Positions 14,383-32,132 of a stretch of 64,000 nucleotides of DNA are shown piece by piece. The notes below the pieces were generated by a model. It was not told the DNA's origin, ran no database searches, and was given only the letters and a program-made list of their open reading frames with translations. The number at the start of each line of letters is the position of its first letter. The stretch's first letter is position 1. Both the position numbers and the translations under genes were made by a program. The stretch comes from Planctomycetota bacterium (lineage in GTDB: Bacteria; Planctomycetota; UBA1135; UBA2386), in contig OZ245838.1 in NCBI GenBank assembly GCA_965228735.1, forward strand, positions 480,001 through 544,000. Reading direction: 5' to 3'.

Positions 14383-14634
14383 TCACTTCCGTAGCTTGGC
14401 GAGAAAGCGTTCCTTGTCGTCCTCGAACTCCGCGACGCACGGGCGGCAGCAGAACTTGACTTCCTGGTCGCCGTAGACCTTGACGACCGGATCGCCCATC
14501 GATCCGAGCTTGTTGTCGGTGACGATGCAGACGTCGGAAGGGTAGGGTCGAACATTGGCGTGGATCGCTGCGCAGGAGGCGAACAGCGCGGCGAATGCAG
14601 TAATGGCGAGCGCGCGGATTCGGTTGGTCTTCAT
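14383..14634 (-). CDS. YHS/TRASH-like metal-binding lipoprotein
   Basis: Lipobox FASC; YPSDVCIVTDNKLGSMGDP...YGDQEVKFCCRPC. Confidence 0.8.
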   Translation of the reverse strand: MKTNRIRALAITAFAALFASCAAIHANVRPYPSDVCIVTDNKLGSMGDPVVKVYGDQEVKFCCRPCVAEFEDDKERFLAKLRK

Positions 14635-17536
14635 GTGGCGGATTAGAAGCGGAAGACCATTCCGAGGCCATAGCCGTGGTCCGAGTGGTACGATGTCGAC
14701 AGTCCGAGGCGCTGGCTGAGGGCCCAGCCGGAGCCGATCGACCACTCACCGTACGTATTGGTATCGTATTCGAAGGAGCCGAACAGAGACCAGCGGCTGG
14801 TGAGCTGAAGCTCCTTCTCGAGTGCGAGCCGGAAGTCGCCCCGGGAGTCGACGCTCAGATTCGACATCACGAAGTAGGGCAGTCGGTATCTCACGCCGGC
14901 AAAGGCGCGGCTGGTGGTGCCGGCCGTGTCGGCGTAGCGAAATCCCAGTTCGGTGGCGAGGTCTGGGTCGATGTAGCGAGACCAGCCCAGGTCGACTTCG
15001 ACGTCGCGCTCGCCGTGCTCGTGGCCGCCGAACGCGGTCGACAAGCCGATGTCCCAGCGGGCGAAGTAGTCGTTGCGCCCCTTCATCACCATCAGGCGAC
15101 CGGAGGTCATGTGGTTCTGCACGGTGGCATCGAGCAGCAAGTACGCTGGATCGAGCAGTTTGGGATCGATCTTCGGTTCGTGCTCGGGGTCCTGCGAGTA
15201 GCTGAAGACGCGCGCCATTCCGGCGTCCATGTGGTACAGCAGGTGGCAGTGGAAGAACCAGTCGCCGCCTTCTTCGTCGGCGATCCACTCGATTACGCGT
15301 TTGCCCATCGGCGGCACGTCGACGGTGTGCTTGAGGGGCGCCCTGGCGCCTTGGCCGTTGAGCAGGCGGAAGAAGTGCCCGTGCAGGTGTAGCGGGTGGT
15401 GCATCATGGTGTCGTTGATGAGCTCGATCCGTAGCACTTCCCCTCTTTTGACGCGGATGGTGGTCTCCTCACTCAGCGTCTTGTCGTCGAACGACCAGAG
15501 GTAACGCTGCATGTCGCCAGTGAGGCGCATCGTCAGCAGGCGCACCTCGGCTTCGTCCGCCGTGATGGTCGTATCCCGGGTTGCGCGCAGAAGGCCGTAT
15601 GGCGCGAATGGTTGGTCCGATGTCGCGGCTTCTTGAGCGCGCTTCGGCATCAAGGTGGCGAGCCCGGCCTGCAGCATCTCGTCCATCGAGTAGAGTTCCG
15701 CCCTCGGCGGATCCGTGGCGGCTCGCAATGGACCGTCGCCGAGCAGGATCGACGCGTGGCCGCTGCCGTCCTGGGCGGTCGCACGAACTTCGACCGTTGC
15801 GGCTTCGGCCGGCATCGTGACGATGACGTCGTAGGTCTCCGCCATCCCGACCAGGAGTCGTCGCACGTCGGCTGGCTCGACCCGCTGCCCGTCGGCGCCG
15901 ACGATCGTGAGGTCTCCCCCGGCCGCGGCCAGGAAGAAGTACGTCGACGCACCCGCATTGATAAATCGCATCAATACGCGTTCCCCGGGCGCGGCGTCGA
16001 GTGGCAGCCGGCGCTGGCCGTTGGCGAGGAAGGCGTCGTAGCCGACGTCGGACAGATCCATCGCCGGCATGCGGTCGCCTTCGCGCCGGATGTAGTCGCC
16101 GAGCGCGCCTCGTTGGTAGGCGCCCCACAGTGACTGTTGCACGCCCTTCTTGATCGAGTACCACTCGCTACCGCGCATCAGCCAGCGCATCACGGTGGCA
16201 GGATCCTCGTCCGTCCAGTCGCCGAGCACGACGACGTGTTCGCGATCGAACTCGATGTCCGGCGTGCGCGGCTCGATGACGATTGCACCCTGGACGCCGC
16301 GCTGCTCCTGCAGCCCGGTGTGCGAGTGGTACCAATAGGTTCCCGATTGCCGGAGCGTGAACTCGAACGGGTGCTCGCCGCCCGGCGGGATCGGCGGTGT
16401 GGTCAAGTATGGGACACCGTCCATTTCGTTGGGCAAGAGTAGACCGTGCCAGTGGATGGAGGTTTCCTCGGTTGCGAGCCGGTTCTTGACAGTGATGCGG
16501 GCGGTGTCGCCTTCGCGAAAGCGCAGGACTGGACCTGGCGAAGTGCCGTTCACGACGAGAACGGGGACGACGTTGCCCGCCGGTGCGCCTTCGACCTCGC
16601 TTATCACCAACTCGTATTCGACTGTCTTGCTGCCCGTCGATTGAGCATCGGTCGTCGGGGGAGTGTGCGATGAACGGTGTATTCGCGTGACGGCTGGTGG
16701 GATCCTCTGACCCATAGGGAGCCCACCGATGACCCCGAAGAAGAATGACCGCCACCGAATCCCGGACGAGCTGATCGACCAGCTCCTCGCCAACTACGAG
16801 AAGCCAGAAGACCTGACAGGAAAGGACGGCATCCTCAAGGAGCTGACGGCCCGGCTGCTCGGCCGCGCCCTCGAAGGCGAGATGACCGAGCACCTCGGCT
16901 ACGAGAAGCACGCGCCGCGTGCCGAGGGCACGACCAACGCGCGCAACGGATCACGCAGCAAGACGATCAAGGTCGAGGACGGCGAGCTCGAGATCGAGGT
17001 GCCGCGCGATCGCGACAGCACGTTCGAGCCCGAGATCGTCAAGAAGCGCCAGAGACGCTTCGCGGGCTTCGACGAGAAGATCCTGGCGCTCTACGCCCGC
17101 GGCATGACCGTCCGGGACATCCAGGGCCACCTGGAGGAGCTGTACGGCGTCGAGGTTTCGCCGTCGCTGATCTCGAGCGCCACGTCGGCGGTCCACGAAG
17201 ACGTCCTGGCCTGGCAGAGCCGGCCGCTCGAGCCAGTTTACCCGATCGTCTTCCTCGACGCGCTCGTCGTGAAGGTGCGCGATGAAAGCGTCGTCCGCAA
17301 CAAGTCGGTCGACCTGGCGATCGGCGTCACGCTCGACGGCCGTCGCGAAGTCCTCGGGATCTGGATCGAGCAGACGGAGGGCGCCAAGTTCTGGCTGAAG
17401 GTCATGAACGAGCTGAAGACGCGCGGCGTCCAGGACATCCTGATTGCGTGCTGCGATGGCCTGAAGGGCTTCCCAGACGCGATCGAGCACGTGTTCCCGC
17501 AGGCCACCGTGCAGACCTGCATCGTGCACATGATCC

Positions 17537-18961
17537 GGCAAAGCAACATTCGTTCTGTAAGAGCGAGCCCATAGTCGGCGAATCATTTCACTCAGCGTCC
17601 ATGGAGAGATAGCGACGGCCAGTCACCCAGTCCTCGCTGATCTCCATGAGGACCGCGGTGGCGAGCCGGAGAAGAGAGGCGTCGTTGGGGAAGAGCGTCG
17701 CAACGCGGGTGCGGCGCAGGAGCTCCTTGTTGAGGCGCTCGAGCATGTTGGTCGTGCGAAGGCAGCGACGGTGCGTCGCCGGGATCGCGAAGACAGCGAA
17801 GCCGTCGGGGACGTTGTCGCGAGCCCACCGGACAAAGTCGGGAGCGGTTTCCGCGTGATCCTCCAGAAGCCTATCAAGAAGCCGTTCGGCCTCAGGTCGG
17901 TCTGGAGCGTTGAAGACCGCACGAAGTCCACGAGCGATCGACGGGCGCAACGAGACGGTCGGCACTCGTGGAGCGGCGTTGCGTTGCAGGTGGAACTGGC
18001 AGCGTTGCCAAGCGACTCCGGGAAAGCTCGCCGCCAAAGCTTGGCGGAGGCCAGAGTGGTCGTCACTGACGATGAGTCCGAGCCCGTGCAGGCCACGTTC
18101 ACGCAGGCTGTCGAGGAAGTCGCGCCAGTGGACCTCGGCTTCCGAGCGCGACACGCTGACGCCGAGGACCGAGCGATGGCCTGCATCATCGACGCCCGTC
18201 GCGATCAGGACGGCGGCGCTCATGACGGAGCCGGCGTGCCGGACCTTTTCGTAGCGGGCATCGAGGACCAGGTAGCGGCACCGGCCGAGCTCGCGCATCC
18301 GCCACTGCTGCAGCTCGTCGTCGAGTGCCGCGGCGGCCCGGGAGACCTGCTGGGACGACACCTGTACTCCGCAGAGCTCCTCGGTGATCGCGGCGACCTT
18401 GCGGGTCGAGACGCCCTGGACGTACATCTCGGCGACCGCGAGCTTCAGGGCGCGCTCCGAGCGAATCCCGCGTTCGAGTGCCGTCGGATAGAAGCGTTCG
18501 CCGTCGACGGCCTCGCGGACCTGCGGGACGGCGAACTCGATCGCGCCGACGCGAGTCGCCACGGTCTTCGGCTTGAAGCCGTTGGCGTAGCCCCGTCGTG
18601 ACTCGGTACGCTCGTTTGGACCGGCGCCCAGGAACGCGGATCGCTCGATCTTCATGGCCTCGTTCACGAGGACGCGGATCGCGTCCGCGATCCCTCCCAG
18701 ACCCTGCGTTGCGATGGATTCCAAGACGGTGTCGAGCGTGCTACTTTCGGATTGGTGGGTCACTTCGTTCTGCTTTCGTTGTGGTTAACAAAAGCTGAGC
18801 GTCGTGACTCGCCGACTTGAAGCATCCGTCCGCGCCGGCGGTGGTCGTCGCGGTCGGCCTGGCCACTGCACCCAGGGTGCAGCGCCCAGACCGACCGCGA
18901 CGACCACCGCCGACTGCGTCAAGCTGCCTCGGGCGGTTTACAGAACGCATGCTGCACTACC
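17537..18961 (-). mobile_element. IS256-family element (inner, nested)
   Basis: IRs GGCAAAGCAACATTCGTTCTGTAA / GGTAGTGCAGCATGCGTTCTGTAA. Target duplication CATGATCC at 17529-17536 and 18962-18969. Confidence 0.92.
17588..18763 (-). CDS. IS256-family transposase (intact)
   Basis: EMYVQGVSTRKV, LDARYEKVR, SDDHSGL, WQRCQFH, RTTNMLERLNKE. Confidence 0.95.
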   Translation of the reverse strand: MTHQSESSTLDTVLESIATQGLGGIADAIRVLVNEAMKIERSAFLGAGPNERTESRRGYANGFKPKTVATRVGAIEFAVPQVREAVDGERFYPTALERGIRSERALKLAVAEMYVQGVSTRKVAAITEELCGVQVSSQQVSRAAAALDDELQQWRMRELGRCRYLVLDARYEKVRHAGSVMSAAVLIATGVDDAGHRSVLGVSVSRSEAEVHWRDFLDSLRERGLHGLGLIVSDDHSGLRQALAASFPGVAWQRCQFHLQRNAAPRVPTVSLRPSIARGLRAVFNAPDRPEAERLLDRLLEDHAETAPDFVRWARDNVPDGFAVFAIPATHRRCLRTTNMLERLNKELLRRTRVATLFPNDASLLRLATAVLMEISEDWVTGRRYLSMDAE

Positions 18962-19810
18962 CATGATCCGGAACTCGCTGCGCTTCGTCAGCTACAAGGA
19001 TCGCAAGGCCGTCGCCAAGGACCTCAAACCGATCTACACGGCCGCCAACCGTGAGGCCGCCGAGGCAGCGCTCGACGCCTTCGACAAGAAGTGGGGCCGC
19101 CGCTACGAGATGATCACCTCGTCCTGGCGAGCGAACTGGGAGCGCGTCGTGCCGTTCCTCGACTTCCCGCCCGAGGTCCGGCGCGTGATCTACACGACCA
19201 ACCAGATCGAGGCGCTCAACTCGAGCCTGCGCAAGCTGCTGCAGTACCGCGGCCACTTCCCGGACGACAAGTCCGTCACCAAGCTGCTCTACCTCGCGCT
19301 GCGTCGCTTCGAGAAGAAGTGGACGCGTGCGCTCTGGAATTGGAGCGCCGTCCTCGGGCAGCTCGCTATCTTCTTTCAAGGCAGGATTCCTGCCCTGTAA
19401 CCGTGACCTCACTCCGCCAGCTGGTCGCCGATTACACCGTTAGCTGCACACTCCCGTCGTCGGGGCCAACAAGAGAAGCGACAGGATCGCCAGCAGACTT
19501 CGAAGTGCAACGTTGCCCATGTGGTTGTGTGTGCGCCGTCATGGATCGTGGCGGCGCGCGGAGATTCTGCGCCGCGATCGCACCCGCGTCCAGACAACAC
19601 GCCCCGGGACGGTCGCTCGCCTTCCTTCGGTGGCCGGGTCGCATCGGCCGTGACCTACATCCGGCGCCATGACATCGTCGCCATCGAGAGCCGATCCGGA
19701 ACGCCTCCTCGTTCCGAAGGATCGGACTCGCCACGCAGGATGTCTCGGACCCGGCTATGATCGTTGTCGGGAGGGCCCTGCCATCCCCCCGCTCCTGATC
19801 GAGGCCCGAC

Positions 19811-20227
19811 ATGAAAACCGCAGCTCTCGTCTCCGTCCTCTTCGCCGCAACCGCGCCGGCGCAACACTGGTCGCTGCACCATCACGGCCACTCGTGCGGC
19901 GCCGCAGTCTCGGCGCAGCTCGTGCAGCATGCGCATCAGGTCAGCGTGCAGTTCAACTTGCACACGACTCCGAACTCCCTGGCTGTGCTCGCGATCGGCC
20001 ACGCCGCGCCGGCGCCGATTCCGCTGCCGGGCGGGTCGTGCCACTTCGGCGTCTCGCCCGCCGGCACGATGCTCGGCATCACGGATTCGCACGGCAACAT
20101 CCACTTCGGCTTCCATGCCCCGCACGTCGCGCCGGTGAGCGTGCTGTTCCAGGGCGGTGTCGTTCGGCTCGGACCACACGGCCTGACTGCGGGATCGAGC
20201 AACGTCATCGAACTCGTCGGCACGTGA
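19811..20227 (+). CDS. Secreted histidine-rich protein
   Basis: Signal peptide ending APA|Q; 15 His in 138 aa; GAGG upstream. Confidence 0.7.
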   Translation: MKTAALVSVLFAATAPAQHWSLHHHGHSCGAAVSAQLVQHAHQVSVQFNLHTTPNSLAVLAIGHAAPAPIPLPGGSCHFGVSPAGTMLGITDSHGNIHFGFHAPHVAPVSVLFQGGVVRLGPHGLTAGSSNVIELVGT

Positions 20228-21111
20228 TCCCCGGCGCCGGGCGGCGCTGGCCGCTTCTGTTACTTGTCGTTGCCTTGATCGTGTCCGCCGGCTCGGCACA
20301 GATCTTCACGGCTGACGCCGGGGTTCGGTCGCCGGAGCTGCCGTCGGTGAGGGAACTCGTCGTCATGCGCGGCTATCGGGATGCCACGGAACTGCGTGCC
20401 GTCTCCGAACTGACCTGGAGCCCGAGCACGCGGTTCGAGACCAAGCTCGAAGTACCCTTCGTCGGGCGTGACCTCGAGATCCCGGCCGCGTCCGGCGCCG
20501 GCTTCGACGGCAGCTACTTCGCCCTCGGGGACACCGTCCTGCGCGGCAAGCTGGCGTTGCTTCGCGATGACGACGTGATGCGTTCCAACCGGGTCGCACT
20601 GCTGGCGGCGGTCTACGCGCCGACCGGCGAACACGATCGAACCCTGGGCGGAGTGCGGCTCCCGCGCCGGGTGCAGGCGGGACTTGGCGGGGTTGCGGGG
20701 AGCCTGGGCGTGGCCGGCACGATCGTCCGCGATCGGCACCGCGCTTCGCTGTCGGCCGAGTGGTTGCACGGCGCCGCCCACGACGGGTTCGAACCCGGGG
20801 ATGAACTCGCGGTCGACGCGGCGTGGTGGTATCGACTGTCACCCGGCGTGTTCGACCCGGCCTTGCCAGCTACCGAGTATCGCCTCGTCACCGAACTGCG
20901 CAGCGTGCACCGATTCGCGGACCACGAGGGCGGAGTGCGGGCCCCTGACGATGGGCTGCGCAGTGAGATGGTTCTCGGGCTGCAGGCCAACACGTCGAAT
21001 CAGCGTTTGCGTTTCGAGATCGGTGCCGTCGTTCCTGTCTTCGAAGACACCCCGGGCCCCCTCGGCCGGTTCCGTGCTGGTGGGGTTGTGGCGCTCACAC
21101 TCTACTTCTGA
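20224..21111 (+). CDS. Putative outer-membrane beta-barrel transporter (MetA/SphA-like)
   Basis: GTGA overlap with the upstream gene; signal peptide; LGDTVLRGK, APTG, VQAGLG; C-terminal LTLYF. Confidence 0.65.
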   Translation: MIPGAGRRWPLLLLVVALIVSAGSAQIFTADAGVRSPELPSVRELVVMRGYRDATELRAVSELTWSPSTRFETKLEVPFVGRDLEIPAASGAGFDGSYFALGDTVLRGKLALLRDDDVMRSNRVALLAAVYAPTGEHDRTLGGVRLPRRVQAGLGGVAGSLGVAGTIVRDRHRASLSAEWLHGAAHDGFEPGDELAVDAAWWYRLSPGVFDPALPATEYRLVTELRSVHRFADHEGGVRAPDDGLRSEMVLGLQANTSNQRLRFEIGAVVPVFEDTPGPLGRFRAGGVVALTLYF

Positions 21112-21119
21112 CCACGACC

Positions 21120-21602
21120 ATGAATCTCACTCGGACTCCCCTGTTAGTGCTCACTCTCGTTGGCTGCGCGGCGCCGCCACCGCGACCGGGCACACCGCTT
21201 TCGAGCGACTCCGGTCTTCGCGAGGTCCGCATCGAGGCCCTCGGGCTCGAGTGACTGCCTTGAGTGAAAGCCGTCGAGGACGGCCTCCGGCGCCTGGACG
21301 GCGTCGAACGCATCAAGACCGACCTGCAGCGCAACCTCGTGACGATGACACCGGCGCGTCGTGTCGCGCCGGACCTGGCGTCGATCCCGCGCGTGATCGC
21401 GGAGGCCGGGTTTCGGCCTGGGCGCATGTGGATCACGGCGCACGGCGCGACCGAGGAGTTGGCCGCGGGCCAGCCGGGATTCCGCATCGATGGCTGGCCG
21501 GCAGGGCTGCCGCTCTCTGGTTCGACCGCCCGGGGGCGTCGCAAGATCGAGGGGCAGGTTGTCTACAGCGACGACGAGATACGGCTGCGGTTGCCTGAGT
21601 AG
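21120..21602 (+). CDS. HMA-domain lipoprotein, putative di-selenoprotein (UxxU; Sec at codons 45 and 48)
   Basis: MNLTRTPLLVLTLVGC...EVRIEALGLE-TGA-LP-TGA-VKAVEDGLRRLDGVERIKTDLQRNLVTMTP...IAEAGF. Both TGAs (21252, 21261) occupy the Cys positions of GxxCxxC. Confidence 0.8.
21270..21298 (+). promoter_or_regulatory. Putative SECIS-like hairpins
   Basis: GCCGUC-GAG-GACGGC (21270-21284) and UCCGG-CGC-CUGGA (21286-21298) directly after the UGA pair. Confidence 0.45.
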
Positions 21603-22007
21603 GTGCGAAGCAGCGGCTTGTCGATTGCTGCGCTCCACCGACCATCTCGATCCACTTGATGCCCCGCGCCGACGCCGTCGCACCGCCCGTGGAGATGCCC
21701 AGGTCGGGCCGACTGCGGCGAGGCCTGACCTGGAATACTCTTTGCTACTCGTTCTTCCATCGTAACCAAGCTTCGGACAACCCAGCGTCGGCACCGCGGC
21801 GAGGGCGATGGTCCGAACATTGGGTGGTCAGATTCTGGCGCCGGGACTCGACAGGTCCTGACGGCAGTTGAATCTGACTGCGTCGTTTCCGGGTATCAGA
21901 TGACAGAGCAGCGTGCACACGACCATGAAACACGGTTCGAATCGTTGAGTGTCGCGTATCACGATCCTCGGGCGTCCGCGGACACCCGCAGCTTGAAAGT
22001 CCCCTAG

Positions 22008-22406
22008 ATGTTGCCATCCCGCGTGTTCCTGATCTCGTTGTGTTGGGCGGCGGTCCTCTGGATCGGCGTCGCGGCGCAGCGCGGCGATGCGCAGCGCCTG
22101 GATAGCGCATGCGGCTCGATGAATGCCACGCCGTCTTCTTCGTGCTGCGGAGAGGAACGTGGCTGCTGCGAGATGGAGGGTGATTCGCAGCGGCTGTGTG
22201 GATGTGGCGAGTCGGACCCGGCGCCGCATCCGGCGATTCCGACTCCGAGTGGTCCGCAGGTCGCGCAGATTGCGCCAGATTGGACTTGGCCGCCGGTCGT
22301 CGTGCCGCCACGAGCAAGCGGTTCCGCGCCACTGGGAAGCGATCTGCCCATGGGGCTTCTGCCACGCGTCTCGCGGCAGAAGGCGCTCTCGGTCTGGCAC
22401 TGCTAG
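22008..22406 (+). CDS. Cys-rich hypothetical membrane/secreted protein upstream of efflux operon
   Basis: N-terminal hydrophobic helix, CC..CC..CGC cluster, Pro-rich tail ending SVWHC. Confidence 0.55.
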   Translation: MLPSRVFLISLCWAAVLWIGVAAQRGDAQRLDSACGSMNATPSSSCCGEERGCCEMEGDSQRLCGCGESDPAPHPAIPTPSGPQVAQIAPDWTWPPVVVPPRASGSAPLGSDLPMGLLPRVSRQKALSVWHC

Positions 22407-22451: not shown

Positions 22452-23957
22452 GTGAGTGCGGCCTTCCAGGTCGCCTCGTCGCCCTTGGCCATTCCCGCCC
22501 GAGATCGATTCATGGGATTCGACCGCAACACCTACACCGTGAGCTGCCGGTTCGGCGCGCTCCTGGCACTGGCAGCCTTGACTGCCTGCTCTTCCTTCTA
22601 CTCCCTGTCGGACGAGGTGCAGCAGCGCATCGCCGAGGAGAGCGGCACGCTCGAGCTGAAGATCAGCGATCACGACGGCGTCCAGGATGCCGCTGCGAAG
22701 GCCATCCGCCGCGAGCTCCCGCTTCCCGAGGCCATCGAGATCAAACCGGACGCCAAGCTGCACGACTATGTGGCGCTGGCGCTTTCGCGCAACCCGCGGC
22801 TGCAGGCGCGGATTCGCGAAGTCGAGGCTCTGGGAATGCGCGTGCCGCAGGTGTCGTCCTTGAGCGACCCGACACTGTCACTGGTGCCGCCGACGGGCGA
22901 CATGGTGCAGACTGCCGGCGGCGAGATGGCGGGAGCGGTTGGCCTGAGCCAGGGCATCCCGTGGCCGGGCAAGCTCGAGGCCAAGGGGCGTGTGGCCGAG
23001 CAAGTGGTGCGGGTCGCGCTGTCCAATCTCGACACCGAACGCCTTCGAGTCGTGGCCGACGTCAAACGGGCGTACTTCGATCTCTACCGCGCGCAGGTAT
23101 CGATCGACGTGACCCGCGAGTTGGAAGCGCTACTGCAGCGCGTCCGCGATAGTGCGCAGGCGCGCGTTGCCGCGGGCACCACCAGCCAGCAGGACCTGTT
23201 GCGCACCGAGGTCGAGCTCTACGCGTTGACGAACTCGCGCATCGACTATGAGCAGGAGTTCCGTACCGCGATCGCTCGGCTCAACATCCTCATGGATCGA
23301 GCCGTCGACGCGGATCTGCCCCGGCCCGCACCGGTGGCTGCCGAGCCACTGCAGTGGCGGTTGCTCGGTCTGTTGCAGCGCGCCGACGAGACCAGCCCCC
23401 AGCTCGCGGCGTTGCGCCAGGTCGTCGAGCGCGACCTCGTTCGCGTGGAGCTCGCGAACCTGCAGTTCTACCCTGACCTCAGTATCGGCGGGTTGTTCAC
23501 GTTCATCATGAACGGCGGCCGCAGCCCGGTTGCGGACGGCAGCGACGTCTGGAGCCTCGGCCTCGGCGTCACGTTGCCGATCTGGTTCGACAAACTGGAG
23601 AGCGGCGTGCTGCAGCGCAACGCCGAGACGCTCGCCAGCGTGCTGCGCTACCGCGAGCGCCGCAACGATGTGTTGTTCGTGCTGCAGGAGCTGCTCGTGC
23701 GGGTGGACGCCGATTACCGCAAGGCAGTGTTGCTGCGTGACGGCATCCTGCCCCGGGCCGACCAGGCCGTGCGGGTCGCACAGAGTGGCTACGACGCCGG
23801 CACCGTCGACTTCGCGACACTGCTCGCGGGTTGGCGCCGGCTGTTCGAGCTCAGCCTCGACTACCACCGGGCGCTCGCGTCGCTCGAGCAGAACATCAGT
23901 GAAGTGGAATACGTCGCCGGTGGCGACATGCAGCGGCAGCAGCCGCCGGAGAAATGA
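22452..23957 (+). CDS. TolC/CusC-family outer membrane efflux lipoprotein
   Basis: Lipobox LTAC, ALSRNPRL, SQGIPWPGKL, coiled coils. True start may be downstream. Confidence 0.9.
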   Translation: MSAAFQVASSPLAIPARDRFMGFDRNTYTVSCRFGALLALAALTACSSFYSLSDEVQQRIAEESGTLELKISDHDGVQDAAAKAIRRELPLPEAIEIKPDAKLHDYVALALSRNPRLQARIREVEALGMRVPQVSSLSDPTLSLVPPTGDMVQTAGGEMAGAVGLSQGIPWPGKLEAKGRVAEQVVRVALSNLDTERLRVVADVKRAYFDLYRAQVSIDVTRELEALLQRVRDSAQARVAAGTTSQQDLLRTEVELYALTNSRIDYEQEFRTAIARLNILMDRAVDADLPRPAPVAAEPLQWRLLGLLQRADETSPQLAALRQVVERDLVRVELANLQFYPDLSIGGLFTFIMNGGRSPVADGSDVWSLGLGVTLPIWFDKLESGVLQRNAETLASVLRYRERRNDVLFVLQELLVRVDADYRKAVLLRDGILPRADQAVRVAQSGYDAGTVDFATLLAGWRRLFELSLDYHRALASLEQNISEVEYVAGGDMQRQQPPEK

Positions 23958-26299
23958 TCATGAAACCTGCCCCTGATTCGCCCACTACCGATCCGACTCC
24001 GGGTGCGCCGGAGCCCTCGCGGCGCCCGCCGAAAGCCTGGCGGACGTTCTTGCTGATCATGTTGCTGCTCGTGGTGGGCGGCACCATGTTGGCCGTCGGC
24101 CGTTCGTTCGGTGATCGCATCTACGCGACGCTCGGTCAGATCTGGCAGGACATCGCCGGCGCGCCGCCGGACGACGAAGGTGACGACTCCGGCAATACGT
24201 TCTTCACCTGCGGGATGCACCCGTGGGTCATCCTGCCAGCACCTGGGCTGTGTCCGATCTGCCACATGGACCTGACGCCGCTCGATGCGTCGAAGTTCAC
24301 CGGTGAGATCGCGATCGACCCCGTGCTCGCGCAGAACATCGGCGTGCGCACCGCGGTCGTCGATACGGGGCCGCTCGTCGCCACGGTTCGAACCGTGGGC
24401 AAGGTCGACTACGACGAGACCGGCCTGCACGACGTCAACCTGCGCGTAGCGGGCTGGATCGAAGAGCTGCACGTCGACTACCTCGGCACCGCCGTGACGA
24501 ACGAGCAGCCGCTGTTCGAGCTGTATTCGCCGGATCTGTACTCGGCGCAGCAGGACTACCTCCTCAGATACGAGCAGAAGGACTTGCCAGGGGTCTCGTT
24601 CGTGCCGCGGGTCGCCGAGGACGCTGCGAGCGCACTGCAGGCGGCGCGGACGCGGCTCACCTTCTACGGCATCGATGACAAACAGATCGCGGAGCTCGAG
24701 CGCGCAGGCGTACCGAGTAGGACCATGACGATCCGGAGTCCACAGCAGGGCACGGTGATCGAGAAGATGGCCGTGGACGGCATGCGGGTCGAGCCGGGGA
24801 TGCGGATGTATCGCATCGCCGATCTCGACAGGGTGTGGGTGACGGTGACGGTCTACGAGTACCAGCTGCCGTTCGTCGAGCTCGGACAGGAGGCGAGGAT
24901 GGTGCTGCCGTACGTCCCGGGGCAGGAGTTCACCGGTGAGGTCACCTACATCTACCCGTGGACCGACGAGAAGACCCGTCAGGTCAACGTGCGGCTGGAG
25001 TTCGACAACAACGACGGGCGACTCAAGCCAGGCATGTTCGCGAACATCGAGCTGCGGCGCACACTGGCCGCAGAGCGCACGCTCGTCAGTCGCTCGGCGG
25101 TCATCGACACCGGCGAGCGGCAGGTCGTACTCATGAGCCTCGGCGGTGGCCGCTTCGAGCCGCGCGAGCTGAAGCTCGGGATCGAGACCGAGGGCGGCTT
25201 GGTCGAGGTGCTGGAAGGTCTCGAGCCGGGCGAGCGGGTCGTCACCAGCGGGCAGTTCCTGCTCGACAGCGAGGCGAAGATCCGTGAGGGCCTGCTGCGC
25301 ATGTTGCGGGGGGACCTCGTCGGCAACGAATCGGCCGGCGACGGACCGGAGCTCGAGTCGCAGCCGCAGGCCCTTGCGGTCGCGTTGACCCGCGCGCTCG
25401 AGAGCTACGTCGTGATCGGCGACGAGCTGGCCAGCGACTCGGCTGCGGACATCGCCAAGTCGGCCGCGGACCTCGCGGCTGCGGTGGAGGAGGTCACCGG
25501 GGTATCGATCCCCGGCGATGAGCACTTCTGGCACAAGCACACCGAGGTCGCCGCGATTCGCGACAAGGCCACCGAGCTGCGAACGATGACGGATCTCGCT
25601 GCGGCGAGACTCGTGTTCTTCGATCTCAGCTCGGCCTTCGTCAAGTTGCTGCGTGCCACGGGGGTGCCACCGACCTACGAGCACGAGGTGCAGGAGCTGC
25701 ATTGCCCGATGTACCAGGAGGAGCGCGGGGGCGCGACCTGGGTTCAGCACGGTGGAAGCGTGCGCAATCCCTACTACGGCAGCGAGATGCTGGTCTGCTA
25801 CGACTCGCGGGAGACGTTGCCCGTGGCTGCGGAAGCCGGCGACACCGGCCCTGCGGCTGCAGCTGCTGCGGTGGACGAAGCGGCGATCGATGCGATCGTG
25901 ACGGTTTACCTCCGGGCTTCGGCAACGCTGGTAGAGGACCGCACCGATGGGCTCGATGCCGCATGGCACGAGTTGCACGAGCTGACCGCGCGCCTGTTCG
26001 ATGCTCCGGGTGCTGTCGCCGACCTCGCGCGCAAGGTGCGTGACGCCGTGCCGGGCACGGGGCTGAGTATCGAAGCGGCTCGCAAGGAGTTCGAAGGTCT
26101 CTCGGCTGCAGTGATCGAGCTCGTGCGCGTCGCGCCTGCGGGGCGTCCGCTCGAGCGTGCGTTCTGTCCGATGGTCGACGCGTCCTGGCTGCAGGCCGAG
26201 AAGTCGGTGAAGAACCCCTACATGGGGCAGGACATGCTCGAGTGCGGCAGCGTCAAGGAGACGCTGCCGGGCCGTCAAAACGGAGGGCAGGGCCGATGA
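23954..26299 (+). CDS. cusB: CusB-like RND membrane fusion protein with N-terminal heavy-metal-binding domain and two DUF3347-like C-terminal domains
   Basis: FTCGMHP...CPICHMDL; LYSPDL; LKPGMFA; GQFLLDSE; two CPM...W...NPY.G..ML.C modules. Confidence 0.88.
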   Translation: MIMKPAPDSPTTDPTPGAPEPSRRPPKAWRTFLLIMLLLVVGGTMLAVGRSFGDRIYATLGQIWQDIAGAPPDDEGDDSGNTFFTCGMHPWVILPAPGLCPICHMDLTPLDASKFTGEIAIDPVLAQNIGVRTAVVDTGPLVATVRTVGKVDYDETGLHDVNLRVAGWIEELHVDYLGTAVTNEQPLFELYSPDLYSAQQDYLLRYEQKDLPGVSFVPRVAEDAASALQAARTRLTFYGIDDKQIAELERAGVPSRTMTIRSPQQGTVIEKMAVDGMRVEPGMRMYRIADLDRVWVTVTVYEYQLPFVELGQEARMVLPYVPGQEFTGEVTYIYPWTDEKTRQVNVRLEFDNNDGRLKPGMFANIELRRTLAAERTLVSRSAVIDTGERQVVLMSLGGGRFEPRELKLGIETEGGLVEVLEGLEPGERVVTSGQFLLDSEAKIREGLLRMLRGDLVGNESAGDGPELESQPQALAVALTRALESYVVIGDELASDSAADIAKSAADLAAAVEEVTGVSIPGDEHFWHKHTEVAAIRDKATELRTMTDLAAARLVFFDLSSAFVKLLRATGVPPTYEHEVQELHCPMYQEERGGATWVQHGGSVRNPYYGSEMLVCYDSRETLPVAAEAGDTGPAAAAAAVDEAAIDAIVTVYLRASATLVEDRTDGLDAAWHELHELTARLFDAPGAVADLARKVRDAVPGTGLSIEAARKEFEGLSAAVIELVRVAPAGRPLERAFCPMVDASWLQAEKSVKNPYMGQDMLECGSVKETLPGRQNGGQGR

Positions 26300-29200
26300 T
26301 TGGCAAGGTCATCGATCTGTGCATTCGCAACCGGGTGATGGTCCTGCTGCTCACGGCGTTCGTCGTGTTCGGCGGCATCTACGCGATCCAGAACATCAAG
26401 GTCGACGCGATTCCCGACCTGTCGGACGTGCAGGTCGTGATCCGCACCGAGTACCCGGGCCAGGCTCCGCAGATCGTCGAAGACCAGGTCACGTATCCGC
26501 TGACGACGACGATGCTCGCGGTTCCGTACGCGAAGGTCGTGCGCGGCTACTCGATGTTCGGGTCGAGCTTCGTCTACGTGATCTTCGAGGACGGCACGGA
26601 TCTGTACTGGGCGCGCAGCCGCGTGCTCGAGCAGCTGAGTTTCGTGGCCGGCAAGCTGCCTTCAGGTGTGAGCCCGCAGCTCGGTCCGGATGCGACGGGT
26701 GTCGGCTGGGTCTATCAGTACTCCCTCGTGACGGGACCCTACAGTCCCGACCACCCGGGCGGGGCATACCACGATGAAGAGAACGACCGTTGGTATGCCG
26801 CTACTGACCTGCCGGAGCTGGCGGCCGACGTTCGGGACCGGCTCGTGCACCATCGCATCTTCGCGCGGCCCAAGACGGTCTACTACGACCGCACCGAGAA
26901 TCGCCGCTATGACGACATCGAGCGGGCGCCGGCCCGGGCGAAGAAGCGACTCGAACCGATCGAACTGGTGCGCGGCTTCACCGAGTGTCCGCTGAGCGGC
27001 GAGCCGCTGCGCGAGCCGGACGTCGATCTCGCCCAGCTCAGGTCCCTGCAGGATTGGTATCTGCGCTACGAACTCACCGCTCTCGAGGGGGTCAGCGAGA
27101 TCGCGGTGATGGGCGGGTTCGTCAAGCAGTACCAGGTTGTCGTCGACCCCGTGAAGCTGCTTGCGCTCGAGATGCCACTGTCGCGCGTCAAGCAGGCCGT
27201 GCGGCGCTCGAACGTCGACGTCGGCGGTCGGCTCATCGAGATGGCCGAGACCGAGTTCATGGTGCGCGGCATCGGCTATCTCGGATCGGTAAGCGACGCC
27301 GAGATCGAGACCGCGCGCGCGGCGGGCCGTTCGGTGGAGAAGCTGCGGACCGAGCGCGCGCTCGAGGAGCTGCGGAAGATCGCGCTCGGCGCGAATGCCC
27401 AAGGTGCCCCGATCTACCTGCGCGATGTCGCGGAAGTTCGGCTGGGGCCCGACATCCGGCGTGGGGTCGCCGACTGGAATGGCGAGGGCGAGACTGTCGG
27501 CGGGGTCGTCGTCATGCGATTCGGCGAGAACGCAAGCAAGACGATCGAGCGAGTGCGCGAGCGGCTGCAGGAGCTCGAGTCCGGCTTGCCGCCCGGTGTG
27601 GCGATTCGAACGGCCTACGACCGCAGCGACCTGATCGAACGGTCCGTGCACACTCTGACCGGCACGCTCATCGAGGAGATCCTCGTCGTCTCGTTGATCT
27701 GTATCTTGTTTCTGCTGCACGCGCGGAGCGCTCTGGTTGCCATGTTCGTGCTGCCGACGGGCGTGCTCGCGAGCCTGGCGGTGATGTATCTGCTCGACCT
27801 CAACGCCAATATCATGAGCTTGGGCGGTATCGCGATCGCGATCGGCGTCATGGTCGACAGCTCGATCATCATGGTCGAGAACGCCCACAAGCACTTCGAG
27901 CGCGACAAGCATCGCGTAGCCGCCGGCGGCACGCCGACTCCGCGCGCTGAGTTGATCGGCGAGGCGGCACGAGAAGTCGGCCCGAGCCTGTTCTTCAGCC
28001 TGCTGATCATCACCGTCAGCTTCCTGCCGGTGTTTGCACTGGGTGAGCAATCCGGGCGCTTGTTCAAGCCGCTCGCTTACACCAAGACGTTCGCGATGGC
28101 GGCCGCCGCCATCCTCGCGGTGACGATCATCCCGGTGCTAATGGTCTACTTCATCAGCGAGCGGGTCCTGCCCAAGGCCATGCCGCGCTGGCAGCGATGG
28201 GCGATCTACCTCGCATTCATGGGGCTGCCGGCCGCAGTCTTGGCCGTCGCCCCACTGGCGACGCTCGAGGCCTGGCGGCTCTGGCTCGTGATCGGATGGT
28301 TGGTCGTCGGGGGCCTCATCGTGCTGCCGCAGCGGATCCTGTCCGAAGAGCACAACCCCATCAGTCGGCTGCTCCAACGGATCTACGATCCGGCGTTCAC
28401 GTTCGTGATGCAGTTCCGCTGGAGCGTCCTGACGCTCGCCGTTGCGGTCGTGGCGTTGACGGCGTGGCCGCTCAGCAAGCTCGGCTCGGAGTTCATGCCG
28501 CCGCTCGAGGAGGGTGACCTGCTCTACATGCCGACCACCGACCCGGGGATCAGCGTCAACAAGGCGCGCGAACTGCTGCAACAGACCGACGCGCTGATCA
28601 TGGCGTTGCCGGAGGTGCAGAGCGTGCTGGGCAAGATCGGGCGCGCGGAGACGGCCACCGACCCGGCGCCGCCGAGCATGCTCGAGACGACGATCACGTT
28701 GCATCGCGACAAGAGCCTGTGGCGCACGAAGCCCGTGCTTCGCTTCTTCTCGGACTGGCCCGAGTGGGTCCGCGACCCGCTCCACGAGATCTGGCCACCC
28801 ACGGAGCCGATCACGGTCGACGAACTGGTCTACGGCTACGACTGGCCCGATGGCACGCACGTGCCGGGCCTCAACGAAGTCGTGCAGGTGCCCGGCTTGA
28901 CGAATGCCTGGACGATGCCGATCAAGACCCGCATCGACATGCTGTCGACCGGCATCAAGACGCCGGTCGGCATCAAGGTCATGGGGCCGGATCTCTCGAC
29001 ACTGGCGGACGTCTCGGAGCGGATCGCCGCCGCCGTGACGACCGCGAAGACGACCGGACCGTTCACGACGAGCGCGTTCCCCGAGAAGTCGGTAGGCGGT
29101 AGCTATCTCGATGTCCGCATCAATCGCGACGAGATCGCTCGCCACGGGCTGCTGATCGCCGACGTGCAGGACGTGATCATGAGCGCGATGGGGGGCATGA

Positions 29201-30120
29201 ACGTGACCTCGACGGTCGAGGGGCTCGAGCGCTACCCGGTCAATGTGCGTTACCCCCATGAGCTGCGCGACAACCTGCCCGCACTGCGGCAATCGCTGGT
29301 TGCGACTCCTGCCGGCGCGCAGGTGCCGCTCGGGCAGCTGGCGGAGTTCGAGGTCCACAAGGGCCCACCGATGGTCAAGAGCGAGAACGCTCGCCTGACC
29401 AGCTGGGTCTACGTCGATATCGCGGGTATCGACGTCGGGACCTACGTGCGCAACGCGCAGGCGGTGGTAGCCAAACAAGTCGAGCTGCCGCAGGGCTACT
29501 CGGTCGTGTGGTCGGGGCAGTTCGAGTACATGCAGGAAGCGAACAAGCGCTTGAGCATCGTGATTCCGATCGCGGCGGTGCTGATCGTGCTCTTGCTCTA
29601 CATGGCGACGCGATCCTGGCTGCGTGTCGGCATCGTGCTGCTGGCCGTTCCGTTCAGCCTGGTCGGAGCGATCTGGCTGCTCTGGTTCCTCGACTACAAC
29701 ATGTCGCTGGCGGTGTGGGTCGGGATCATCGCGCTCGCTGGACTCGACGCCGAGACCGGGCTCGTGATGCTGCTCTATCTCGACAATAGCTTCGAGCGGT
29801 TCAAGGCATCCGGTCGGATGCGGAACGCCGACGATCTGTGGTTCGCGATCCACGACGGTGCCGTGAAGCGCATCCGACCGAAGACCATGACCGTGATGAC
29901 GACGTTCATCGGCCTGGCCCCGTTGCTCTTCGCATCGGGCGCCGGTGCCGACACGATGCGGCGCCTTGCCGCTCCGATGATCGGCGGGCTGGCGACGAGT
30001 TTCATCATGGAGCTCCTGATCTATCCGGTGCTGTTCTTCCAGGCCAAGCGCCTGGCGATGCGCGGGACCTGGCGTGCCGCGGCGGGCGCCGCGCCAATGC
30101 CGACGAGGTCTTCTTCGTGA
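26296..30120 (+). CDS. cusA: CusA/SilA-family heavy metal efflux RND permease
   Basis: DAIPDLSDVQV, GPDATGVGWVYQY, GSEFMPPLEEGD, KTRIDMLSTG, GAVKRIRPKTMT. Confidence 0.93.
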   Translation: MIGKVIDLCIRNRVMVLLLTAFVVFGGIYAIQNIKVDAIPDLSDVQVVIRTEYPGQAPQIVEDQVTYPLTTTMLAVPYAKVVRGYSMFGSSFVYVIFEDGTDLYWARSRVLEQLSFVAGKLPSGVSPQLGPDATGVGWVYQYSLVTGPYSPDHPGGAYHDEENDRWYAATDLPELAADVRDRLVHHRIFARPKTVYYDRTENRRYDDIERAPARAKKRLEPIELVRGFTECPLSGEPLREPDVDLAQLRSLQDWYLRYELTALEGVSEIAVMGGFVKQYQVVVDPVKLLALEMPLSRVKQAVRRSNVDVGGRLIEMAETEFMVRGIGYLGSVSDAEIETARAAGRSVEKLRTERALEELRKIALGANAQGAPIYLRDVAEVRLGPDIRRGVADWNGEGETVGGVVVMRFGENASKTIERVRERLQELESGLPPGVAIRTAYDRSDLIERSVHTLTGTLIEEILVVSLICILFLLHARSALVAMFVLPTGVLASLAVMYLLDLNANIMSLGGIAIAIGVMVDSSIIMVENAHKHFERDKHRVAAGGTPTPRAELIGEAAREVGPSLFFSLLIITVSFLPVFALGEQSGRLFKPLAYTKTFAMAAAAILAVTIIPVLMVYFISERVLPKAMPRWQRWAIYLAFMGLPAAVLAVAPLATLEAWRLWLVIGWLVVGGLIVLPQRILSEEHNPISRLLQRIYDPAFTFVMQFRWSVLTLAVAVVALTAWPLSKLGSEFMPPLEEGDLLYMPTTDPGISVNKARELLQQTDALIMALPEVQSVLGKIGRAETATDPAPPSMLETTITLHRDKSLWRTKPVLRFFSDWPEWVRDPLHEIWPPTEPITVDELVYGYDWPDGTHVPGLNEVVQVPGLTNAWTMPIKTRIDMLSTGIKTPVGIKVMGPDLSTLADVSERIAAAVTTAKTTGPFTTSAFPEKSVGGSYLDVRINRDEIARHGLLIADVQDVIMSAMGGMNVTSTVEGLERYPVNVRYPHELRDNLPALRQSLVATPAGAQVPLGQLAEFEVHKGPPMVKSENARLTSWVYVDIAGIDVGTYVRNAQAVVAKQVELPQGYSVVWSGQFEYMQEANKRLSIVIPIAAVLIVLLLYMATRSWLRVGIVLLAVPFSLVGAIWLLWFLDYNMSLAVWVGIIALAGLDAETGLVMLLYLDNSFERFKASGRMRNADDLWFAIHDGAVKRIRPKTMTVMTTFIGLAPLLFASGAGADTMRRLAAPMIGGLATSFIMELLIYPVLFFQAKRLAMRGTWRAAAGAAPMPTRSSS

Positions 30121-30275: not shown

Positions 30276-32132
30276 ATGAGTTCACGACTTCCTCGACGTT
30301 CATCCCAGAAGCCTCCGCGCCCGAGCCGACGTCAGTTCCTCGCAGCGTCCGCGTCTGCGGGTGCCTCAGTTGCGCTTGGTAGTTGTCGCCTTGAGCCTGC
30401 CTTCCGGCGCCCGGCGAGCGCTGCATGGAGCCCCGCAGATCTGATCGTAGAGCGTCGAACCGTCTCGATCGACGGTCAGGCTACGGAGGCAGTCACTCTA
30501 AACGGCTCGCTTCCTGGTCCGACGCTCCGGTTCAAAGAGGGGGATGAGGCGGTTCTGCGCGTGCAGAATCGGCTGGACGTCGACACATCGGTGCACTGGC
30601 ACGGGCTGATTCTGCCGCCGAACATGGACGGCGTGCCGGGCGTCAGCTTCCGCGGAATCGCCCCTGGCGAGACCTTCACCTACCGATTCCCGATTCGCCA
30701 GAGTGGGACCTACTGGTACCACAGCCACTCGGGGTTTCAGGAGCAGCTCGGGATGTTTGGTGCGTTCGTCATCGAACCAGCGGAGGCGGACCCCATCGAG
30801 TCCGATGTCGAGCATGTCATTCTCCTGTCCGACTGGACGTTCGAGGATCCGATGCGCATCCTCGCACGGCTGAAGAAGAGCGCGGGCTACTACAACTTCC
30901 AGAAGCCGACGATCGCCGCGGATGGCCTCGGCGCCATCGTGAGGAATCGTCTGTCGTGGGGAGCCATGCGGATGGATCCGACCGACATCGCCGACATCAC
31001 CGGGGCAACGTACACGTACCTGATGAACGGCATGGGGCCGGCGTCGAACTGGACGGGTCTCTTCGAGCCCGGGCAGACCGTTCGACTGCGGCTCGTCAAC
31101 GCTGCGGCAGCTAGCTACTTCGACGTGCGAATTCCGGGCTTGGCCATGACTGTCGTCCAGGCGGATGGGCAGAACGTCGAACCGGTGACGGTCGATGAGT
31201 TGCGGATCTCGATTGCGGAGACCTACGACGTTTTGGTGACCCCTCGAGAAGACCGCGCCTACACGGTGTTCGCCGAGGCCATGGACCGCAGCGGGTTCGC
31301 GCGGGGAACCCTGGCCCCACGTGTGGGAATGTCGGCCGCGGTGCCACCTCGCCGGAAGCGTCCGTTGTTGACGATGCGAGACATGGGCATGTCCATGGCG
31401 AGCATGCCGGCGGCCGAGATGCCGGGCATGGAGATGGCGAATGGCCACGACATGAACGCGATGCCTGGGCACGACAAGGGAAGCGAGAAGGGTGCCACGA
31501 CCGAGATGGGGGGCATGCGAAAGAACGGCGGCGGCGAGCCAGGAATGCAAGCGGGCGAGTCCGGACCCGCTTGGGCGCGCTCCGTTCCTCACGGTCCGGA
31601 TACCCATGGGCCCGGCAACACGATGATCCCCGAGTTCACGAAGGGTCGGCTCGATGAGCCGGGAATCGGCCTGGGCGAGGCTGAGCACCGGGTGTTGGTC
31701 TACACCGACCTGAGGCGCCTCGTTCCAGGGAACGACCAGCGCGAGCCGGACCGTGAGATCGAGATGCATCTCACGGGCAACATGGAGCGCTACATCTGGG
31801 GATTCGATGGCAAGAAGTACTCAGAGGCGCCGGAGTCGATTGCGTTCCGATACGGGGAACGTCTCCGACTCACCTTCGTCAATGACACGATGATGAATCA
31901 TCCCATCCACCTCCACGGCATGTGGATGGAACTGGTCAACGGCGCCGGGGAGCACAAGCCTCGCAAGCACACTGTCAACGTGAAACCCGCGGAGCGGCTG
32001 TCGGTGGACATCTCAGTCGATGCGCCCGGCCGATGGGCGATGCATTGTCACATCCTCTATCACATGGATGCTGGGATGTTCCGAGTGGTGGAGGTGAGTG
32101 AAGCACCCGAGGAGCAGCGACATGGCAAGTAG
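30276..32132 (+). CDS. copA: Tat-exported copper resistance multicopper oxidase (PcoA/CopA)
   Basis: SRRQFL Tat motif; HWHG, YWYHSH, Met-rich insert, HPIHLHG, HCHILYHM. Confidence 0.92.
   Translation: MSSRLPRRSSQKPPRPSRRQFLAASASAGASVALGSCRLEPAFRRPASAAWSPADLIVERRTVSIDGQATEAVTLNGSLPGPTLRFKEGDEAVLRVQNRLDVDTSVHWHGLILPPNMDGVPGVSFRGIAPGETFTYRFPIRQSGTYWYHSHSGFQEQLGMFGAFVIEPAEADPIESDVEHVILLSDWTFEDPMRILARLKKSAGYYNFQKPTIAADGLGAIVRNRLSWGAMRMDPTDIADITGATYTYLMNGMGPASNWTGLFEPGQTVRLRLVNAAAASYFDVRIPGLAMTVVQADGQNVEPVTVDELRISIAETYDVLVTPREDRAYTVFAEAMDRSGFARGTLAPRVGMSAAVPPRRKRPLLTMRDMGMSMASMPAAEMPGMEMANGHDMNAMPGHDKGSEKGATTEMGGMRKNGGGEPGMQAGESGPAWARSVPHGPDTHGPGNTMIPEFTKGRLDEPGIGLGEAEHRVLVYTDLRRLVPGNDQREPDREIEMHLTGNMERYIWGFDGKKYSEAPESIAFRYGERLRLTFVNDTMMNHPIHLHGMWMELVNGAGEHKPRKHTVNVKPAERLSVDISVDAPGRWAMHCHILYHMDAGMFRVVEVSEAPEEQRHGK

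Follow-up and report, generated by a model that had tools for sequence, protein, structure and literature searches.

A predicted two-selenocysteine HMA lipoprotein encoded beside a putative outer-membrane channel gene in Planctomycetota

The gene and its predicted product

The window (the whole stretch of planctomycetotal DNA that was analysed, 64,000 nucleotides long) carries a gene whose ATG lies 8 nt 3' of the stop codon of the preceding gene and which, with TGA translated as selenocysteine (Sec, U), would encode a lipoprotein of 160 amino acids terminated by TAG (21600-21602). Two in-frame TGA codons, at 21252-21254 and 21261-21263, correspond to residues U45 and U48 and lie in a loop motif that aligns with GMxCxxC of known metal-binding proteins (Table 1). 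The N-terminus combines a hydrophobic signal with Cys16 of a lipobox, a residue present in all 25 close orthologs in the alignment. An ORF listing under genetic code 11 shows only a 112-aa ORF starting with GTG at 21264, and the protein database entry P0002 is the same shortened form. The initial annotation, made before these analyses, had described the position of the ATG, the LVGC lipobox, TGA codons at both cysteine positions of an HMA domain, GC hairpins just past the motif and truncation by gene callers to the ORF at 21264; all of this was borne out, by translation of the frame, the structure model and alignment described below, the hairpins found and the ORF and database entries. Its general reading, a di-selenoprotein with an HMA fold, was supported as well, while a second domain, a layout of one hairpin per UGA and a conserved barrel partner had been overlooked.

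The region 20900-21700 is identical, with zero differences, in contigs from four runs of four studies, all of which carry TGA rather than TGC or TGT at the two codons, so that an assembly error is unlikely, although this comparison used assembled contigs and not raw reads, and any of these runs may be near the source sample. At least half of the words of 20224-21602 are present in 12 sequencing runs; among all runs that share the stretch, those with a named source comprise one coral metagenome (0.57 of the words) and, at 0.48 or less, macroalgae metagenomes. No RNA data set is among the 24 runs listed, a result without bearing on expression in either direction. A promoter scan at the locus found none, and it contains three terminator-like sites, a number near chance level.

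Table 1 Features at and around the lipoprotein gene (positions within the window).
Feature	Position	Strand	Remarks
Multicopper oxidases	14643-16607 and 30561-32132		
His-rich 138-aa predicted secreted protein	19811..20227	+	stop overlaps barrel start (GTGA)
Signal peptide and 270-aa predicted outer-membrane beta-barrel	20224..21111	+	PF13557/COG4313-like, C-terminal Phe
Predicted di-selenocysteine HMA lipoprotein gene	21120..21602	+	160 aa with TGA=Sec
Lipoprotein signal peptide, lipobox LVG-C16	21120..21167	+	motif and ortholog alignment; lipidation predicted
HMA (ferredoxin-like) domain, residues ~33-106	21216..21437	+	PF00403, structure model
Metal-loop motif G-L-E-U-L-P-U	21243..21263	+	aligns with GMxCxxC of CopZ and ATP7B domains
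SECIS-like hairpin 1	21270..21284	+	-8.3 kcal/mol; loop 21 nt past first UGA, G first
SECIS-like hairpin 2	21288..21306	+	-11.2 kcal/mol; loop 31 nt past second UGA, G at loop position 2
C-terminal all-beta region, residues ~107-160	21438..21599	+	model strands; common to cysteine homologs
OEP/CusB/CusA-like efflux set (CusCBA-like)	22452-30120		

The window protein scores 22.7 bits against the HMA model PF00403, for which the gathering cut-off is 24.8, and all 25 family members match it at E<=0.01 (best E 5.4e-13). An AlphaFold model, computed from 25 sequences with U replaced by C, has a mean pLDDT of 91.5 and matches Ccc2a (1fvq) with a Z score of 10.6 and an rmsd of 1.5 over 72 aligned residues; a Foldseek search likewise returned matches of the HMA class. 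The model has a ferredoxin-like fold in which a CxxC-type loop follows strand 1, and both Sec residues align to the cysteines of GMxCxxC, in agreement with the HMA fold first proposed. No named family was matched by the C-terminal beta region; matches to the HMA domain prevailed in fold searches with the full protein, and an ESM Atlas search with the C-terminal part alone returned only unnamed clusters, under 0.9.

Conservation and predicted decoding of the two UGA codons

A profile search of 339 genomes of the host's class gave 35 matches at E<=1e-8, and the close-ortholog set was defined as 25 full-length genes (L025-L049), the window's included. Outside this count are cysteine-only HMA proteins, one fragment at a contig end, three divergent UxU proteins and four further matches. 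The codon pairs at the motif are TGA/TGA in 20 orthologs, TGA followed by TGT or TGC in four and TGT/TGA in one; neither TAA nor TAG occurs at either column in any of the 25. In-frame UGA is thus aligned with the cysteine of homologs and otherwise kept as UGA, the pattern expected of a selenoprotein gene, and the earlier argument that two nonsense mutations were unlikely to fall on exactly these codons by chance agrees with this restriction to TGA and Cys codons. Identity to the window protein is 30-55%, with both flanks of the motif conserved; Cys16, Gly42 and both motif columns (as Sec/Cys) are invariant, and Glu44 is retained in 24 of the 25. The literal motif ULPU is found in the window protein and in 11 of the 25 orthologs.

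In a sample of 401 genomes of the phylum, 17 match. Two TGA codons are present in every one of the 13 matches from outside the host's order, and the nine of these 13 that were inspected are all UxxU. Twelve relative loci include six in Planctomycetota, two in Ca. Brocadiaceae and one weak partial match in Marinobacter (L066, E 5e-4 over 36 residues). Neither of two genomes of the host's own genus gave a match. A quick tree of 50 proteins scatters the four UxxC forms over four different positions among the UxxU forms; its branches follow host family, and support for the Sec group as a whole is only 88%. Of 150 representatives in the database, 82 extend over the C-terminal region; 56 of these begin past the motif, 23 are full-length CxxC proteins, two begin inside the motif and one, P0013 from Planctomycetota, is full-length, has neither Cys nor Sec at either position and is nested among UxxU forms. 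In P0117, a further member of the family from the database, a Redoxin/AhpC-TSA domain that carries a CxxC is fused to the C-terminus.

Two further groups of lipoproteins were observed. Three divergent proteins with U-x-U (T-U-I-U), encoded at L081:7992-8500 (-), L082:1700-2288 (+) and L083:3891-4400 (-), have an AYGL stretch after the motif that resembles the CPFC cysteine family, and L132, L133 and L134 encode another UxxU subfamily (G-G-I/V-T-U-x-x-U) adjoining weaker barrel homologs.

RNAalifold predicted two adjacent hairpins 3' of the motif, a 15-pair structure with 93% of cells paired and 17 two-sided changes, a result reached by none of 500 shuffles and compared with 26-53% paired in slid controls; the structure was derived from the same related sequences, so this pairing statistic overstates the case. 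We therefore used a control of synonymous recodings, which avoids this circularity, together with the published rule for bacterial SECIS elements (a loop of 3-9 nt with G in its first two positions, 16-37 nt from the UGA, on a stem of >=4 bp of <= -7.5 kcal/mol; PMC13188914), applied with our own script rather than bSECISearch. One qualifying hairpin per codon was found in 24 of the 25 orthologs, among them the window copy, which thereby shows SECIS-like elements of the kind that the initial annotation had proposed to look for; the corresponding figures are 4.6% for synonymously recoded sequences and 17 of 3000 for genome sites taken at random. Loop 1 starts only 12 nt from the second UGA and loop 2 as much as 40 nt from the first, so each hairpin has the 16-37 nt spacing to just one of the two codons.

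The one ortholog of the 25 that fails is L042, which has Cys at motif position 2. The other three UxxC genes retain hairpin 2, which argues against one SECIS per codon, and three of the nine distant members fail the test. The fold of lowest energy for the window copy is a single long alternative hairpin (-22.7 kcal/mol, vs -19.5 for both hairpins together), and of 100 recodings 34 were equally stable.

The host genome (7.19 Mb, 69% GC) encodes selA, selB, selC (tRNA-Sec) and selD, the four genes whose presence the two-Sec reading called for, and its selD itself has an in-frame TGA. selA was found in 28 of 29 genomes carrying the lipoprotein gene; as 315 of the 339 genomes of the class have it anyway, this co-occurrence is uninformative as a test.

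The UGA/Cys conservation, the tandem hairpins and the full Sec machinery of the host together support insertion of selenocysteine, and the gene very likely encodes a two-Sec protein, judging from the sequence comparisons. With equally high confidence, SelB would read hairpin 1 for the first UGA and hairpin 2 for the second, so that U45 and U48 would both be inserted. That databases hold only truncated forms would suit a locus that does not encode a selenoprotein at all, whether a pseudogene, an assembly error or a gene in which UGA is read as Trp or Cys, but we regard this as extremely improbable, given that TGA alternates only with Cys codons at the two columns, that both flanks are conserved across 30-55% identity, that the hairpins are conserved, that four independent assemblies are identical and that many orthologs, as well as the gene upstream, use TGA as their normal stop codon. 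Pseudogene, assembly error and TGA as Trp were rejected on the codon alternation, on TGA as ordinary stop and on the identical contigs of the four runs. A real, unannotated gene for a two-Sec HMA lipoprotein is therefore a well supported prediction.

The predicted channel partner and relation to known families

A gene for a predicted outer-membrane beta-barrel, without any in-frame TGA, lies directly 5' of the lipoprotein gene in 24 of the 25 orthologs (counting L036, which is cut by a contig end), the exception being L029, which has a different predicted porin upstream. Conversely, 25 of the 339 genomes have a close barrel ortholog, and all of these are followed by the lipoprotein gene, at 24 known loci and, in the 25th case, as a lipoprotein start at a contig end. 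Three of four weaker barrel matches adjoin a further UxxU lipoprotein, and barrel genes also occur next to genes of the UxU type (L081, L082) and of the cysteine type (L086); at three of nine distant loci it was not found within 1.5 kb. At L144 the UxxU gene is preceded instead by a gene for a membrane protein, which we take to resemble YeeE/YedE sulfur transporters. The window barrel falls just short of PF13557 (E 2.8e-4, 21.5 bits vs a cut-off of 22), while its homolog at L086 passes (E 1.7e-13), and a weak profile match to FapF was also seen (E 0.006). It shares a mature length of ~270 aa, a signal peptide and a C-terminal Phe with channels of the COG4313/PF13557 type (Pput2725, TcpY, SphA, FapF), from which it differs in its setting, as the known ones are tied to hydrophobic organics or to amyloid export.

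The HMA domain resembles CopZ, MerP, Atx1/Ccc2a and the N-domain of ZntA (PF00403) in fold and in the position of two chalcogen residues, and MerP also in its predicted export. In contrast to CopZ, MerP and Atx1, the window protein would have Sec for both cysteines, and it has G-L-E in place of G-M-T/S, a predicted lipid anchor and an extra domain; membership of the CopZ and MerP families was rejected (17.6-28.4 bits vs cut-offs of 62-95 for NF033795, NF033794, NF047957, TIGR00003 and TIGR02052). Close in character is NF041115 (UxxU_metal_bind), whose HMA-like domain likewise carries UxxU in its metal-binding loop. All 25 members match it weakly (best E 3.7e-8), and membership was rejected at 18.7 bits vs a cut-off of 95, which none of the 339 class genomes exceeded; the model covers 74 positions, whereas proteins of the window family are ~160 aa long, possess a lipobox and a C-terminal beta region, and have the barrel as a constant partner. 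We predict that the window protein works like NF041115 proteins and MerP-type binders, yet it lies outside those families. Among the curated models tested, none was passed by the family and its channel partner.

The window protein is not the first UxxU protein of the HMA type, since such proteins have been catalogued, as predictions only, in NF041115, in Table 1 of PMC13188914 and in PMC9312934, going by the accessible parts of these sources. The statement in the initial annotation that no characterised UxxU HMA protein was known therefore holds in so far as the catalogued ones are predicted only, and fails as to novelty, such proteins being already listed. The main risk to novelty is another entry, the 'ULPU-containing selenoprotein' of Peng et al. 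2016 (PMC5029168; 28 proteins in 26 organisms), which may be the window family: it shares the motif ULPU and is listed apart from the MerP and cation-ATPase selenoproteins, a comparison by name and counts only, as the accessible text gives neither sequence nor fold. In the accessible main text of Zhang and Gladyshev 2007, the review's source for NF041115, 'UxxU' does not occur, and the accessible parts of PMC13326102 and PMC12013277 hold no relevant passage on such proteins; UxxU also occurs in a Prx-like family (PMC2398784). Sec in a heavy-metal HMA loop is shared with the MerT/CopZ fusion selenoprotein NF045683, the Sec P-type ATPase (UxxC) and the MerP selenoprotein, which differ in being membrane transporters or single-Sec domains, and NF045683 gave only weak matches, to three of the 25 members. 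In the accessible portions of the literature searched, which left out Haft and Tolstoy 2025 and the 2007 SelL paper, no description was found of tandem bacterial SECIS elements or of a channel-selenoprotein pairing.

The same architecture of HMA and C-terminal beta region is seen in exported CxxC two-domain proteins (mostly CPFC; P0083, P0089, P0097, P0111), and the cysteine-type locus L086 has a PF13557 barrel and a MerR adjoining as well. These proteins differ in having Cys for Sec and, by eye, a cleaved signal peptide in place of a lipobox; they form a separate branch in the quick tree, and none of the seven examined passes an NCBIfam cut-off.

Genomic context and possible function

The window pair lies in a copper island, together with CopB and two transposase-like genes. 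The His-rich protein encoded before the barrel was a singleton in neighbour clustering, present only at the window locus among those compared, and, at the thresholds applied, had no match among Pfam or NCBIfam families. Metal genes are likewise found beside L055, L057 (MerA-like, MerT-HMA, MerR) and L064, and L086 has metal-resistance neighbours too. In all, of the 27 distinct Sec-type loci that had wide flanks, 4 showed such neighbours, the window locus included, a lower bound as 84 neighbour proteins from 190 clusters were scanned. Three further features of the window were also observed. A multicopper oxidase gene is followed by one for a small putative lipoprotein (14383-14745, -), which has spaced cysteines, looks YHS-like and gave no Pfam or NCBIfam match; a 132-aa Cys-rich signal-bearing ORF of no convincing family lies directly 5' of the efflux operon (22008-22406, +); and a transposase-like gene, presumably IS256-like, runs from 16729 to 17574 and resumes near 18963-19400, split by a transposase-like gene of the opposite strand (17588-18763).

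Our preferred reading, to which we give a probability of roughly 0.55, is that of an envelope metal trap of Planctomycetota, in which a lipoprotein with two Sec residues is predicted to trap soft metal ions at a channel. Cys16 would be lipidated, placing the protein in the envelope, probably at the outer membrane, where it would act with the COG4313-like barrel; their gene linkage is observed and the joint function is suggested by it. The two selenolates, perhaps with Glu44, would on balance be expected to bind species of Hg(II), Cu(I), Ag(I) or Cd(II) on their way through the channel, with a higher affinity than cysteines have; the metals would then be held or passed to efflux or detoxification systems where these are present. 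An acidic residue at the place of Glu44 is a third ligand in the ZntA domain. The HMA fold, the 23 CxxC homologs, the barrel linkage and the metal-resistance neighbours support this reading; heavy-metal binding is suggested by the fold and some of the neighbours, and the role of 'metallochaperone' given in the initial annotation is an inference.

Several observations speak against a metal trap. The canonical Met of GMxCxxC is mostly Leu in the family, P0013 is a relative without the motif, no conserved Cys, Met or obvious metal site was found in the barrel's invariant columns, and the remaining Sec-type loci lie mostly among housekeeping genes. The COG4313 channels characterised so far are, in the accessible text of PMC4493636, tied to hydrophobic organic molecules.

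The same source describes these as uptake channels, and the pair might accordingly be a module in which the channel admits a scarce metal or complex and the selenolate site pulls it inwards for nutrition, not detoxification. Such a role would suit the setting of the pair, which mostly occurs on its own with housekeeping genes around it, and the tree, which follows host family, unlike mobile resistance genes. However, no inner-membrane importer or TonB partner is conserved adjacent to the pair, and the metal genes, where present, are of efflux or detoxification types, so that we consider uptake improbable.

The main rival of the metal trap, still unlikely in our view and less so than uptake, is a redox protein of the envelope whose UxxU would alternate between the diselenide and the selenol state, with a substrate that passes through the channel and with the HMA fold as scaffold only. 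An oxidising compartment might keep a UxxU site locked in the diselenide form, which would count against metal trapping, and an oxidised structure of MerP exists (1osd). Most loci are without metal genes. SelL is described as holding a diselenide in a redox motif, and most uncharacterised selenoproteins are likely to be redox in function according to the accessible text of a review (PMC13188914). The fusion of P0117 to a thioredoxin-like domain points the same way, but it occurs in one of 150 representatives and would equally fit a reductant that keeps a metal site reduced; moreover the fold is that of HMA and not of thioredoxin, and several loci lie within Cu/Hg islands.

A wider form of the metal-trap reading is tentative, and we would rather doubt than assert it: an envelope system of two genes, not described before and widespread across Planctomycetota, whose COG4313-type channel would be physically coupled to a di-selenol HMA lipoprotein capturing mercury or other soft metals, in UxxU, UxU and CxxC versions, with two tandem SECIS elements decoding UGA codons three codons apart. 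Whichever function applies, the UxxU, UxxC, CxxU and CxxC forms provide a natural matched series, in one fold, in which to ask what selenium contributes to a metal site, the known prokaryotic examples of Sec metal sites of this kind being predicted only. The gene is also a compact test of bacterial insertion of two Sec residues three codons apart, of relevance to the production of multi-Sec proteins, and it links a channel family of hydrophobic organics to possible metal handling.

The 56 of 82 two-domain database representatives that begin past the motif reveal a systematic gap in annotation. Across the class, many other HMA-like matches with one in-frame TGA were observed (G068, G110, G201), as was one with two (G296), which suggests further candidate Sec-HMA genes that are unannotated.
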